A stretch of DNA of 64,000 nucleotides, taken from Escherichia coli (GTDB lineage Bacteria > Pseudomonadota > Gammaproteobacteria > Enterobacterales > Enterobacteriaceae). The stretch lies in assembly GCF_045037415.1 (NCBI RefSeq), contig NZ_CP173438.1. One strand, given 5' to 3'. Below, piece after piece: positions 29,601-32,600 of this stretch. Position numbers: made by a program. How positions within the stretch are numbered: position 1 is the stretch's first letter; each line of letters starts with the position of its first letter.

Positions 29601-32600
29601 CAGCTACGCAGGTTTAACGCTGCCGCTGATGGCCTCGGCGACCGCCACGTTTCTGTTTCGCCAGTTCTTTATGACCCTACCGGATGAACTGGTGGAAGCC
29701 GCGCGGATCGACGGCGCGTCGCCAATGCGTTTCTTTTGCGACATCGTTTTTCCGCTGTCCAAAACCAATCTGGCGGCGCTGTTTGTGATCACCTTTATTT
29801 ACGGCTGGAACCAGTATTTGTGGCCGTTGTTGATTATTACCGACGTTGATCTCGGCACCACCGTGGCAGGGATTAAAGGGATGATCGCCACAGGCGAAGG
29901 CACAACGGAATGGAACTCGGTGATGGCGGCGATGTTGTTAACCCTGATCCCACCAGTAGTGATTGTTTTAGTGATGCAGCGTGCCTTCGTGCGCGGCCTG
30001 GTCGATAGTGAGAAATAAGATGGCAGGACTGAAATTACAGGCAGTAACCAAAAGCTGGGATGGCAAAACCCAGGTCATTAAACCGCTGACCCTTGATGTG
30101 GCGGATGGCGAATTTATCGTGATGGTCGGGCCGTCTGGCTGCGGGAAATCGACGTTATTGCGAATGGTGGCCGGACTGGAGCGGGTAACGACGGGCGATA
30201 TCTGGATCGACCGCAAGCGTGTCACCGAAATGGAGCCGAAAGATCGCGGGATTGCGATGGTGTTCCAGAACTACGCGCTCTATCCGCATATGAGCGTAGA
30301 GGAGAACATGGCGTGGGGGCTGAAAATTCGCGGCATGGGCAAGCAACAAATTGCCGAACGTGTTAAAGAAGCGGCGCGCATTCTGGAGCTGGACGGCCTG
30401 CTTAAGCGCCGCCCGCGTGAGCTATCTGGCGGTCAGCGTCAGCGTGTGGCGATGGGGCGTGCGATTGTGCGTGAGCCGGCAGTGTTCCTATTTGATGAGC
30501 CGCTCTCTAACCTCGATGCCAAGTTGCGTGTGCAGATGCGTCTTGAACTGCAACAGCTGCACCGTCGCCTGAAAACGACTTCACTCTACGTTACCCACGA
30601 TCAGGTTGAGGCGATGACGCTCGCCCAGCGAGTAATGGTGATGAACGGCGGCGTTGCCGAACAGATTGGCACGCCAGTTGAAGTGTACGAAAAGCCCGCC
30701 AGCCTGTTTGTGGCGAGTTTTATCGGCAGCCCGGCGATGAACCTACTGGCTGGCCGTGTGAATAACGAAGGTACGCATTTCGAACTGGATGGCGGTATTG
30801 CGCTGCCGCTAAACGGTGGCTACCGTCAGTATGTCGGGCGTAAAATGACCCTCGGCATTCGCCCGGAACATATAGCGCTAAGCTCGCAGGCAGAAGGTGG
30901 TGTGCCGCTGGTGATGGACACGCTGGAGATCCTCGGCGCAGATAACCTGGCGCACGGACATTGGGGCGAACAGAAGCTGGTGGTGCGACTGGCACATCAG
31001 GAGCGCCCGACGGCAGGCAGCACGCTGTGGCTGCATCTGCCGGAAAATCAGCTACATCTTTTTGATGGTGAAACAGGACAACGAGTATGAGTAACTGGCC
31101 TTATCCCCGCATCGTCGCCCATCGTGGCGGCGGTAAACTGGCCCCGGAGAACACCCTGGCAGCAATCGACGTCGGGGCAAAATACGGTCATAAGATGATC
31201 GAATTTGACGCGAAGTTATCGAAAGATGGCGAGATCTTCCTGCTCCATGACGACAATCTTGAACGCACCAGCAACGGCTGGGGCGTCGCGGGTGAACTGA
31301 ACTGGCAGGATTTACTGCGCGTGGATGCAGGCAGTTGGTACAGCAAAGCGTTTAAAGGTGAGCCACTGCCGTTGCTTTCGCAGGTGGCGGAACGCTGTCG
31401 CAAACACGGGATGATGGCGAATATCGAAATCAAACCCACCACTGACACTGGACCATTAACGGGCAAAATGGTGGCGTTGGCGGCACGCGAACTGTGGACC
31501 GGTATGACGCCGCCGCTGCTGTCATCGTTTGAGATTGATGCTTTAGAAGCCGCTCAACAGGCAGCACCGGAACTGCCGCGTGGTTTATTGCTTGATGAAT
31601 GGCGCGACGACTGGCGAGAATTGACCGCGCGGCTGGGCTGCGTCTCTATTCATCTCAATTATAAGTTGCTCGATAAAGCGCGAGTGATGCAGTTGAAAGA
31701 TGCAGGACTGCGAATTCTGGTTTATACCGTCAATAAACCCCAGCGCGCGGCAGAGTTGCTGCGCTGGGGCGTGGATTGCATCTGTACCGATGCGATTGAC
31801 GTGATTGGTCCGAACTTTACGGCCCAATAGTTTTCAACGGAATGTCAGGCTGCGGCGTGCTGGGCTGATTCAGCATGTCGCCGTTTCTCCTCTCCGGCAG
31901 CATATGCTGCTGATTCAACGAACTATCCGGATTACGGTTGCTGTTTAACATCCCGCCGTTGGTGTTGGGCAGCATTTGCTGCCGGGCGGGATTTCGCTCC
32001 CCCGGTTGTGACTGCAACACCCGCTGAGAATTATTGTTTATCTGGTTTTCTAAATGCTGTTGTTGCAGCTGCGTTTGCGTTTTCAGTTGCTGGTTCAGCA
32101 TCCCTTTTTGCTGAATTTGCTGCGTCTGCATTTGAGTTTGCATCCGCTGCTGGCTGGGGATCTGATATCCCGGCTGGTTAGGGTTGTTCAGAGTATTAAT
32201 GGGCTGTGCAAAGCCGACAAACGGCAGGAGTGCCGTCAAAAGCAGAAGTCGTTTCATCGCGTATCCTCCTCTGAAGATATTCTTTAAGTTTACTCGCTTC
32301 CCGGCAAAACGATGATTAATTCAGAGTTATATACCAGGCTTAGCTGGGGTTGCCCCTTAATCTCTGGAGAATAACGATGATAAAACCGACGTTTTTACGC
32401 CGGGTGGCCATTGCTGCTCTGCTCACAGGAAGTTGTTTTAGTACGGTAGCCGCGCCTCCTGTTTCTTATGGTGTGGAGGAAGATGTCTTCCATCCGGTAC
32501 GCGCGAAACAAGGGATGGTGGCGTCTGTAGATGTTACTGCCACTCAGGTGGGAGTGGATATCCTCAAGGAGGGCGGGAATGCCGTTGATGCTGCCGTGGC

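Follow-up and report, generated by a model that had tools for sequence, protein, structure and literature searches.

YhhA, a glutamine-rich DUF2756 protein of Escherichia coli with a conserved, predicted helical core

Locus, gene identity and distribution

The analyzed window, a stretch of 64,000 nucleotides from the Escherichia coli contig NZ_CP173438.1, harbors a minus-strand reading frame flanked by ggt and by ugpQ, the 3' end of which it faces in convergent orientation (Table 1). Its product matches the Pfam family DUF2756 (PF10956) over the full model (positions 1-105 of 105; 202.4 bits versus a curated cut-off of 21, E=1.6e-60) and the NCBIfam equivalog PRK10350 (NF007675) likewise from end to end (positions 1-145 of 145; 264.8 bits versus a cut-off of 136). 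Weak Pfam matches to CemA and ThsA_Macro (E=0.12) were dismissed as noise. The name yhhA, which had been given to the gene in a sequence-only reading of this DNA, is borne out by these HMM matches and by the RefSeq annotation, and it is practically beyond doubt that we are dealing with yhhA, through which DUF2756 is represented in E. coli. Public annotation already records the gene and its family, and likewise the peculiar composition and the overlap with ugpQ, so that the feature is a known one.

The window allele is of the B2 type. Its identity to yhhA as annotated in strain SK1144 is 100%, and at the nucleotide level it shares 99.2% with CFT073 and 97.0% with K-12. The 14 nucleotide changes relative to K-12 cause a single residue change, at position 6 of the signal peptide (leucine in the window, isoleucine in K-12). 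Thus, the window protein and K-12 YhhA (b3448) are one residue apart, share the neighbors ggt and ugpQ as well as the overlap, and do not differ in any essential respect. Of 5426 complete E. coli genomes, 5424 carry the gene, among them K-12 and laboratory strains of the BL21 type such as BLR(DE3). As a whole, the family is limited to Enterobacteriaceae and Erwiniaceae, environmental members included. A strong Shine-Dalgarno sequence precedes yhhA, and a GGAGG-type element is kept at this site across genera.

Alleles of 96-165 aa that stay in frame and arise from indels in the predicted helix (see below) or from the loss of one 24-aa unit are rare among the E. coli entries of protein databases. 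The span of yhhA was exactly canonical in 59 of 60 genomes sampled at even spacing from the 5424 complete ones, which indicates that length variation is rare, and length polymorphism was therefore rejected as a major feature of the gene.

The order of the three genes in the window agrees with the annotation of K-12 and SK1144. In 79 of 80 genome loci, and in distant relatives as well, one of them from Erwinia psidii, ugpQ adjoins the DUF2756 gene; ggt lies upstream of the DUF2756 gene in 77 of the 80 loci, being separated or absent in some distant relatives. In the E. psidii locus the adjacency to ggt is broken by an inserted pair of effector and chaperone genes, and on one metagenome contig a pirin gene occupies the position of ggt. 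In the related loci examined, the gene remains next to ugpQ. A functional coupling of yhhA to ggt was rejected because this adjacency is broken in distant loci. The adjacency of both genes is inherited synteny in a narrow clade and gives no further functional clue.

Table 1. Coordinates of yhhA, its neighbors, and its sequence features in the window
Feature	Position	Strand	Remarks
ugpQ, glycerophosphodiester phosphodiesterase	31087..31830	+	last gene of the ugpBAECQ operon; convergent neighbor of yhhA
Terminator-like GC-rich hairpin followed by UUUAUU	31738..31769	-	48-80 nt past the yhhA stop, within ugpQ codons
yhhA coding sequence	31817..32257	-	ATG-start ORF, 146 codons plus TAA stop; Pfam and NCBIfam match; RefSeq annotation
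yhhA/ugpQ tail-to-tail reading-frame overlap	31817..31830	both	14 bp; same in RefSeq K-12 and SK1144
Disordered C-terminal tail, aa 84-146	31820..32008	-	pLDDT <50; dN/dS 0.12-0.23
Tandem unit 2, aa 116-139	31841-31912	-	two M-L motifs
Terminator-like hairpin, ugp operon	31852..31881	+	located in the 3' part of the yhhA coding sequence; stem of 12 bp, then CGUUUCUCCU
Tandem unit 1, aa 93-115	31913-31981	-	two M-L motifs
Gln-rich core, aa 35-83	32009..32155	-	predicted single long alpha-helix; most constrained part of YhhA
Pro/Asn-rich N-terminal segment, aa 18-34	32156..32206	-	conserved; predicted disordered
Signal peptide, aa 1-17	32207..32257	-	read from sequence; predicted cleavage between G-F-A and Q-P
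Shine-Dalgarno AGGAGG	32265..32270	-	7 nt upstream of the yhhA ATG
Candidate sigma-S/sigma-70 -10 element TAAACTTAA	32284..32292	-	putative yhhA promoter
ggt, periplasmic gamma-glutamyltransferase	32377..34110	+	divergent neighbor, 119 bp from the yhhA start

Overlap with ugpQ and selection on the protein

The overlap of yhhA with the 3' end of ugpQ is exactly as the sequence-only reading had described it. Overlapping reading frames are found in 71 of 79 related genome loci. Both terminator-like hairpins of this region lie within the respective opposite gene. Hairpins similar to the one on the plus strand are present in 31 of 80 related loci. The hairpin on the minus strand was missed by a simple terminator scan and became apparent from the fold; 29 of the 80 loci have it, and its variants include an exchange of C-G for U-A on both arms. 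Both hairpins are putative terminators. Their location inside the opposite genes would imply that the 3' ends of the yhhA and ugpQ transcripts are complementary over about 160 nt.

One alternative reading takes the pair as an excludon, whose convergent transcripts overlap and silence one another, so that the locus would act mainly at the RNA level and the encoded protein would be of secondary importance. The pair yhhA-ugpQ is among the overlapping convergent pairs that ExcludonFinder obtained from RNA-seq data (PMC12288877), and the prevalence of the reading-frame overlap as well as the placement of the only terminator-like hairpins fit this view. However, the length of the overlap ranges between 4 and 23 bp, eight genomes have lost it, and the hairpins are restricted to 29-31 of the 80 loci. 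Furthermore, yhhA encodes a real protein under purifying selection, with a dN/dS of 0.06-0.11 for the whole gene in the minus-strand frame. Three plus-strand ORFs within yhhA (32054-32287, 32008-32181, and 31805-31948) were discarded as antisense read-through of CAG/CTG-rich codons, as selection acts on the minus-strand frame. This strong selection at the protein level together with the detection of the YhhA protein (see below) shows that the protein is the selected product, and the excludon is very unlikely as the explanation of the gene. An effect at the RNA level could exist beside the function of the protein, but not instead of it.

Export and expression

The N-terminus of YhhA has the features of a Sec-type signal peptide, namely a basic n-region (MKR), a hydrophobic core of 13 residues, and small residues at positions -3 and -1. 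Cleavage probably occurs after A17, and the residues A17, Q18, and P19 are invariant across genera. As YhhA has no cysteine, and hence no lipobox Cys, it is not a lipoprotein. The earlier prediction of a signal peptide is confirmed by these features. The designation of the protein as secreted holds with respect to its Sec-type export, but has to be qualified with respect to its destination: the sequence and the detection of YhhA in surface or envelope extracts (PMC9731836) point to the periplasm or envelope, and YhhA probably resides in the periplasm. In the study cited, YhhA is named in the legend of a panel showing the 15 most abundant surface-extract proteins of STEC, together with proteins of the periplasm such as HdeB, Ivy, SodC, and ZraP.

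The spacer between ggt and yhhA contains the box TAAACTTAA, which is the best-conserved block of this spacer in 28 genomes from many genera. The -10 consensus of sigma-S promoters is TCTATACTTAA, which TAAACTTAA matches. The box is therefore a candidate for the yhhA promoter and would fit recognition by sigma-S. In genomic SELEX, the ggt/yhhA spacer was bound by the RpoS holoenzyme (PMC5493296). The gene yhhA is among the RpoS-regulon genes that are induced on cold shift (PMC4057180), its expression goes up in parallel with that of rpoS as cells pass into stationary phase (PMC2241611), and the abundance of the YhhA protein drops together with that of RpoS, OsmY, and SodC (PMC7056703). In addition, yhhA is induced by a LolCDE inhibitor (PMC5105897) and by sub-MIC concentrations of a beta-lactam (PMC9927464). 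It is likely that YhhA is an exported protein of the RpoS regulon. The papers found report neither a mutant phenotype nor a partner of yhhA, and a literature search with the locus tag b3448 returned unrelated papers only.

A different role has been suggested for pathogenic E. coli, in which YhhA would be a type III effector with S/TQ motifs that mimic substrates of the host kinase ATM (bioRxiv 10.1101/364117). In a protein with 22% Gln, such S/TQ motifs are expected by chance. Neither a non-Sec signal nor a restriction to strains with a type III secretion system, both of which would characterize an effector, applies to YhhA: its N-terminus is a classical Sec signal peptide, and the gene is present in nearly all E. 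coli genomes (5424 of 5426). It also occurs in Enterobacteriaceae and Erwiniaceae from the environment, and numerous genera that are not pathogenic possess it. The behavior of yhhA as an RpoS-regulon gene is also at odds with this role. Thus, our analysis argues against the published suggestion, which we consider exceedingly improbable.

Composition and repeats

The whole YhhA protein contains 19.9% Gln, 12.3% Asn, and 10.3% Pro. In the mature protein (14.7 kDa, pI of about 10.4, GRAVY -1.40) the share of Gln and Asn rises to 22.5% and 14.0%, respectively, adding up to 36%, with 11% Pro and 5.4% Gly. Charged and aromatic residues are few; the mature part has no Cys, no Trp, and one Tyr, and YhhA has only two His. 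The sequence-only reading had considered this dominance of Gln and Asn unusual, and this is supported by comparison with the longer ORFs of the window (200 aa or more, n=48), the maximum Gln plus Asn content of which is 14.9% as opposed to 32% in whole YhhA, placing its composition far outside the local range.

Short QxQ repeats, which had also been noted, could not be upheld. There are 8 QxQ matches in YhhA compared to about 6.4 expected from the Gln content (127 positions x 0.225^2), and Tandem Repeats Finder did not detect a DNA tandem repeat in yhhA. QxQ is thus a by-product of composition rather than a true repeat, and the idea was dropped. Genuine repeats do exist in the form of the motif [Q/G]-x-M-L-[N/P], which occurs five times, and of a tandem duplication of about 24 residues (aa 93-115 and 116-139), which is backed by direct repeats in the DNA at a spacing of 72-75 nt. 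In YhhA of Escherichia albertii, exactly one unit of about 24 aa is missing. The ML dipeptides of the tail are kept in at least 92% of 81 sequences.

Predicted structure and constraint

The mature protein starts with the Pro/Asn-rich segment (mean column identity of 0.87 in 81 sequences, dN/dS 0.035-0.077, pLDDT 56-61), which is followed by the Gln-rich core and the tail. With an alignment of 64 sequences, AlphaFold2 predicted a helix at aa 34-83 with a pLDDT of 87-94, while the remainder was disordered; with 20 sequences, the helix comprised aa 35-83 at a pLDDT of 70-80. The core of 50 residues is free of Pro and, by inspection, consists of Gln by roughly half. Its dN/dS of 0.009-0.044 is the lowest in the protein, and across 81 sequences R38, M43, M53, L54, and many Gln show little or no variation, with invariant positions among Q, R, M, G, and L residues. 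This position-specific conservation indicates that the function of YhhA resides in the N-terminal motif and the polar helix and not in composition as such.

These results bear on the earlier description of YhhA as a low-complexity protein, for which disorder prediction and a survey of conservation had been proposed as checks. The description is misleading in that it suggests a loose constraint, since the Gln-rich block is the best conserved part and a predicted long helix. Disorder was predicted for the Pro/Asn-rich segment and the C-terminal tail, whereas the Gln-rich core is helical in the model, and the family proved to be conserved across Enterobacteriaceae and also in Erwiniaceae, with the Gln-rich block as its most constrained region.

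Along the predicted helix, neither a heptad nor a 3.6-residue periodicity was found, the band of 3.3-3.8 residues being non-significant in permutations for conservation (p=0.34) and hydrophobicity (p=0.27), and no heptad register gathers the hydrophobic residues. As the periodicity is not significant, a classical coiled coil or an amphipathic binding face is not supported for YhhA. The confidence of AlphaFold2 in the isolated helix carries no information on the oligomeric state. Two profile searches and one single-sequence search of the PDB revealed no solved homologues, yielding only Gln-rich noise with E-values of 0.14 or higher, and Foldseek did not match the model to any structure of the PDB.

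A first alternative to a function of specific residues is that YhhA is a non-specific, disordered protectant of the hydrophilin, LEA, or holdase type, for which only bulk composition matters; it would guard periplasmic proteins or hold water during stationary-phase, cold, and osmotic stress. This would agree with the strongly negative GRAVY and the Gln plus Asn content of the mature protein, with the predicted disorder of two thirds of the chain, and with the link of YhhA to RpoS and its abundance in envelope extracts. However, the constraint on the helix is much tighter than a role of composition alone would need, with single Gln, Met, Arg, and Gly positions being invariant across genera. Hydrophilins, as reportedly defined by Garay-Arroyo et al. 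in 2000, have a hydrophilicity index above 1 and a Gly content above 6%; YhhA has the required hydrophilicity but too little Gly and does not qualify as a hydrophilin overall. Both the composition-only role and the protective effect in the periplasm appear unlikely.

The Gln plus Asn content, the scarcity of charged and aromatic residues, and the Pro-free Gln-rich core are also reminiscent of a prion-like or amyloid domain, with a composition like that of curli subunits or yeast prion domains, which would form fibres or condensates in the envelope. This is highly improbable, because the core is predicted with high pLDDT to be an alpha-helix and not beta, Pro residues flank this core, imperfect beta-strand repeats as in CsgA are lacking in YhhA, and there are no assembly genes near yhhA.

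The conserved Met residues raise the question of whether YhhA captures Cu(I)/Ag(I) or oxidants in the periplasm as a Met-based sink that, like SilE and PcoE, would become helical on binding. At six positions, 75-81 of the 81 sequences retain Met with no exchange for Leu or Ile, a pair M39-x3-M43 is located on the helix, H118-M119 is conserved, and mature family members contain 6.9% Met on average. One distant member even has a sub-threshold match to Pfam Metal_resist (E=6.7e-4, 20.3 bits versus a cut-off of 29.2). On the other hand, the two His residues of YhhA do not form HxxM/MxxH arrays, PDB sequence searches matched YhhA to none of Spy, CpxP, ZraP, SilE, and CusF, and the literature found does not link yhhA to a metal regulon. 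As Metal_resist is matched by only 3 of 64 members, all below threshold, the link to ZraP, Spy, and CpxP via this family was rejected as compositional, and a metal or oxidant sink is considered quite improbable.

Comparison with known periplasmic proteins

Like Spy, CpxP, and ZraP, YhhA is a small, Sec-exported, helical, and stress-induced envelope protein without an enzymatic fold. The predicted structure of YhhA, one long polar helix with disordered tails, differs from the helical-hairpin cradle of these proteins. Spy, CpxP, and ZraP are under the control of the Cpx, Bae, or Zra systems, whereas YhhA is linked to RpoS. The window protein matches neither of the Pfam families of their clan (LTXXQ and Metal_resist), and the PDB sequence searches gave no match to them. 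ZraP and YhhA are named together in one figure legend on surface extracts (PMC9731836).

YhhA resembles the SPOR-domain division proteins FtsN and DamX in having a Gln-rich sequence in the E. coli periplasm. In FtsN and DamX, the Gln-rich parts are linkers within membrane-anchored multidomain proteins, and their existence indicates that such a composition is tolerated in this compartment. YhhA, in contrast, is a free, soluble, small protein whose Gln-rich part is the best conserved.

SilE and PcoE are Sec-exported, largely disordered, metal-binding periplasmic proteins of about 140 aa, which form a helix and have conserved Met residues. YhhA is similar in size, export, disorder, conserved Met, and its predicted helix. 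It differs from them by having only two His and no repeated HxxM/MxxH motifs, and by being encoded on the chromosome, universally in E. coli and outside of metal-resistance islands.

Proposed role and significance

According to our best explanation, YhhA would be made as part of the response to general stress and stationary phase that depends on RpoS (sigma-S), exported by its Sec-type signal peptide, and then reside in the periplasm. It has no enzyme-like fold, and its working part would be the almost purely polar, Gln-rich helix of 50 residues (aa 34-83) that follows the conserved Pro/Asn-rich segment. This helix may bind a specific periplasmic partner or self-associate through Gln and Met contacts, while the C-terminal tail, with its variable number of Met-Leu motifs, may add weaker multivalent contacts. 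We give this account as a whole, that is, a Sec-exported protein of the RpoS response acting non-enzymatically by binding or self-association via its polar helix, a little less than an even chance. The mechanism taken by itself, partner binding or self-association through the helix, is proposed tentatively.

A more far-reaching version, which is speculative and rather unlikely, is that the helix represents the founding module of a lineage-restricted periplasmic "polar zipper". In this case, the almost charge-free, non-amphipathic helix of 75 angstrom, which is under near-absolute purifying selection, would mediate self-assembly or the clamping of a partner via hydrogen bonds between Gln side chains and Met contacts. 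It would do so in an ATP-free compartment during stationary phase, and the Met-Leu motifs of the tail might tune its valency.

The value added by this analysis is small and descriptive. What is new concerns the Gln-rich segment of YhhA, which is a strongly conserved, predicted long helix and not a loose low-complexity sequence. From this analysis, R38, M43, G52, M53/L54, and the ML motifs emerge as residues to target, together with the candidate promoter box. YhhA, a core protein of E. coli without an assigned function, has a link to RpoS and has been named with other abundant proteins in extracts of the envelope. If the polar-zipper model were true, it would represent a kind of envelope stress protein that has not been described before.

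Identity and position of yhhA

The ORF is a member of the DUF2756/YhhA family, and all defining features tested were found in it. For its product, the E-value against Pfam DUF2756 (PF10956) is 1.6e-60, and the NCBIfam equivalog PRK10350 scores 264.8 bits (cut-off, 136); because of these matches, the name YhhA given in the sequence-only reading was right. Sequence identity of the region is 100% with E. coli SK1144, 99.2% with CFT073, and 97.0% with K-12. In these strains the ORF is annotated as 'yhhA: DUF2756 family protein' and overlaps identically with ugpQ, the last gene of the ugpBAECQ operon, which also confirms the 14-bp overlap claimed from the sequence. 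yhhA is an already annotated, known gene of unknown function and is carried by 5424 of 5426 complete E. coli genomes.

Coordinates of yhhA, its neighbors, and associated sequence elements in the window
Feature	Position	Strand	Remarks
yhhA ORF	31817-32257	-	146 codons
ugpQ	31087-31830	+	tail-to-tail with yhhA; 14 bp common to both frames
ggt	32377-34110	+	opposite strand to yhhA, 119 bp upstream of it
Shine-Dalgarno AGGAGG	32270-32265	-	strong; 7 nt before yhhA ATG
Candidate -10 element TAAACTTAA	32292-32284	-	outstanding conserved block in ggt-yhhA spacer alignment of 28 genomes
Spacer block TAAGCCTGGT	32342-32333	-	conserved across many genera
Spacer block ATCATCGT	32316-32309	-	conserved across many genera
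Terminator-like 12-bp hairpin, then U-rich run	31852-31881	+ (ugp sense)	inside yhhA
Terminator-like GC-rich hairpin, then UUUAUU	31769-31738	- (yhhA sense)	inside ugpQ
yhhA codon 97	about 31967-31969	-	site of P97 change in C41(DE3)
Perfect 12-bp palindrome CAGCATATGCTG	31898-31909		Q-H-M-L codons; reads identically on both strands
17-nt inverted repeat, arms	31894-31910 and 31969-31985		within yhhA
RyhB small RNA	34810-34874	+	Rfam RF00057, 83.1 bits

The canonical yhhA span was exact in 59 of 60 genomes sampled evenly from the 5424. In the 60th, strain A16 (NZ_CP028758.1, 4498146-4498386; hits H10 and H70), the match is restricted to the promoter-proximal 5' half of yhhA, and ugpQ does not lie under it. 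A16 is among only three gene-bearing complete genomes with <80% of the query matched, and its alignment is suggestive of a yhhA/ugpQ junction altered by deletion or insertion. On the ggt side, yhhY and ggt of K-12 (L088 954-4134) are separated by about 3.4 kb of DNA that comprises a tssD/Hcp-family gene, a YrhA-family gene, IS1A, yrhD, and yrhB. In the window (compared over 34111-34800) and in SK1144 this block is missing, and ggt is directly followed by yhhY. RyhB, the sole Rfam match of the 64-kb window, lies about 700 bp past the end of ggt, after yhhY; no known RNA family was detected by Rfam in or beside yhhA.

Composition and internal repeats

YhhA consists of 19.9% Gln, 12.3% Asn, and 10.3% Pro (22.5% Gln and 14.0% Asn after the signal peptide), with no Cys or Trp, a single Tyr, and 10 basic versus 6 acidic residues (pI about 10.4, 14.7 kDa, GRAVY -1.40). 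The unusual Gln/Asn-rich composition noticed earlier was thus substantiated, as Q+N amounts to 32% of the whole protein and none of the window's 48 ORFs with 200 aa or more exceeds 14.9%. The reported QxQ repeats did not hold up as a true repeat, since 8 copies were seen against about 6.4 predicted from the Gln content and Tandem Repeats Finder reported no DNA tandem repeat in yhhA. Two genuine repeats were found: the motif [Q/G]-x-M-L-[N/P], with five copies at residues 53, 95, 103, 119, and 128, and a tandem duplication of about 24 residues (aa 93-115 and 116-139), which is visible as DNA direct repeats with a spacing of 72-75 nt. Exactly one 24-residue unit is gone from the 122-aa YhhA of E. 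albertii. Rare E. coli alleles in protein databases range from 96 to 165 aa, all in frame, and carry duplications or deletions inside the Gln-rich block or miss a 24-residue unit, a pattern as expected of slippage between short CAG/CAA-rich repeats.

The palindrome and the inverted repeat, which is formed by the Q-H-M-L copy and a related QQML copy 72 nt away, are probably by-products of the peptide repeat. In E. coli C41(DE3), a change at nt 290 of yhhA replaces Pro by Leu at P97 in the first M-L-P motif, which was considered irrelevant to membrane-protein overproduction by the authors (PMC4632034).

Selection, conservation, and predicted structure

The window allele differs from K-12 yhhA by 14 nt and only one amino-acid change, L6I, within the signal peptide. 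The dN/dS ratios (Nei-Gojobori) were 0.07 in Escherichia, 0.07 in Citrobacter, and 0.11 in Enterobacter. By region, dN/dS was 0.009-0.044 for the Gln-rich block (aa 35-83), 0.035-0.077 for the N-terminal segment (aa 18-34), and 0.12-0.23 for the C-terminal tail. An alignment of 81 orthologues likewise showed the highest conservation in the signal-proximal segment and the Gln-rich block; R38, M43, M53, and L54 do not vary in it, and many Gln positions hardly do. YhhA is a real protein under strong selection with the Gln-rich part as its core. FtsN and DamX have periplasmic linkers rich in Gln, of which the composition of YhhA is reminiscent, but in YhhA the Gln-rich part is the conserved core. 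Six Met positions are almost never replaced by Leu, as would fit a Met-based metal or oxidant sink; this function is improbable, as His-Met arrays and a family link are absent.

AlphaFold2 predicted a single unbroken helix for residues 34-83, with a pLDDT of 70-80 from 20 sequences and of 87-94 from 64 sequences, and values of about 60 or less outside the helix and mostly <50 past residue 84. Disorder is predicted for the tail and the N-terminal part, but not for the Gln-rich block. The constrained elements of YhhA are the N-terminal segment and this polar helix. A prion-like assembly, compatible with the composition, is at odds with the confident helix prediction and is highly improbable. Neither conservation nor hydrophobicity showed a significant heptad or 3.6-residue periodicity along the helix, which thus belongs neither to the textbook coiled coils nor to the amphipathic helices. 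No solved structure resembling YhhA was found by sequence search or by fold comparison.

Distribution and ancestry

When 1.84 billion representative proteins were searched with a profile, no more than 79 clusters, including many fragments, reached E<=0.001, and the named DUF2756 members belong to Enterobacteriaceae and Erwinia. Distant members of 88-110 aa retain the signal peptide, an N-P-S-Q-Q-R-M-Q-x-Q-M motif, the Gln-rich helix, and a Q-R-V-x-x-S-Q-P-G end, but have no Met-Leu tail, which points to the helix module as the ancestral part of YhhA.

Among 80 genome loci, ugpQ is the convergent neighbor in 79 and ggt the divergent neighbor in 77; the three loci examined from more distant relatives all keep the adjacency to ugpQ as well. 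In 71 of 79 loci the yhhA and ugpQ frames share 4 bp (37 loci), 11 bp (2), 14 bp (14), 17 bp (9), 20 bp (8), or 23 bp (1), and in the remaining 8 they lie 7-96 bp apart. In the plant pathogen Erwinia psidii (L081 2680-3750, GCA_003846135.1), ggt is separated from the DUF2756 gene by inserted genes for a type III effector (Pfam AvrPphF-ORF-2, AvrPphF/HopF family) and a CesT-type chaperone, and in one metagenome contig a pirin gene replaces ggt upstream of the DUF2756 gene. Because the clade is so narrow, the yhhA-ugpQ arrangement is best read as inherited gene order rather than as evidence for a common function. One contig labelled Chryseobacterium sp. 18061 (L044) has the enterobacterial ggt-yhhA-ugpQ order, with Ggt and UgpQ about 87% identical to E. 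coli, and closely resembles a locus of Citrobacter sp. 18056 (L036) from the same project; this record is probably a mislabelled or contaminated assembly.

Expression signals and published data

The -10 consensus of sigma-S promoters is TCTATACTTAA. By its match to this consensus, TAAACTTAA is a putative sigma-S -10 element of yhhA, with a predicted leader of about 23 nt. The blocks TAAGCCTGGT and ATCATCGT could act as the promoter of ggt, as a -35 region, or as a binding site for a regulator.

There is no intergenic room for terminators between yhhA and ugpQ, and the embedded terminator-like hairpins were detected in only 29-31 of 80 related loci. If both were used, the two mRNAs would have in common a complementary 3' end of about 160 nt, a prediction in agreement with ExcludonFinder, which lists yhhA-ugpQ among overlapping convergent pairs (PMC12288877). 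An excludon role at the RNA level, very improbable as the explanation of the locus, may exist beside the protein function but cannot be the main selected role.

No paper with YhhA as its direct subject was found in a literature search; the indirect data are mutually consistent. In genomic SELEX, the ggt/yhhA spacer was bound by RpoS holoenzyme (PMC5493296). yhhA has been listed with induced RpoS-regulon genes after cold shift (PMC4057180), is up-regulated together with rpoS at stationary-phase entry (PMC2241611), and has been described as a multi-stress up-regulated gene (PMC9501238); a LolCDE inhibitor raised its expression 5.6- to 9.9-fold (PMC5105897), and acid caused mild induction. In some mutants of rRNA methyltransferases, the protein decreased along with RpoS, OsmY, and SodC (PMC7056703); it increased with sub-MIC beta-lactam (PMC9927464) and changed 8.8-fold in Salmonella inside lettuce (PMC4265081). 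In surface extracts of STEC, YhhA is named beside periplasmic proteins in the legend of a panel of the 15 most abundant proteins (PMC9731836). It was also among only six proteins captured from E. coli lysate by a ppApp photoaffinity probe (bioRxiv 10.1101/2021.12.15.472736), a surprising hit for an exported protein that is perhaps explained by the stickiness, abundance, basic charge, and disorder of YhhA rather than by a true ligand. A preprint proposed a type III effector mimicking ATM substrates (bioRxiv 10.1101/364117), which is scarcely credible, as the Sec signal peptide conflicts with this role and yhhA is also present in laboratory and environmental strains.

Proposed function

According to tool results or the cited papers, the envelope protein YhhA is under selection, of the exported type, linked to RpoS, and free of any enzyme-like domain. 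Its general style is that of Spy, CpxP, and ZraP, small helical stress proteins of the periplasm to which it is not homologous. The main alternative, a non-specific protective disordered protein, fits composition and regulation, but it is rather unlikely and leaves the frozen individual Gln, Met, Arg, and Gly positions unexplained. Tentatively, YhhA is instead proposed to bind, through its polar helix, a partner in the periplasm or other copies of itself, and the Met-Leu motifs repeated in the disordered tail may add multivalent contacts. With a low probability, the helix might even represent a new type of polar module of the stationary-phase periplasm, which would self-assemble or clamp a partner.
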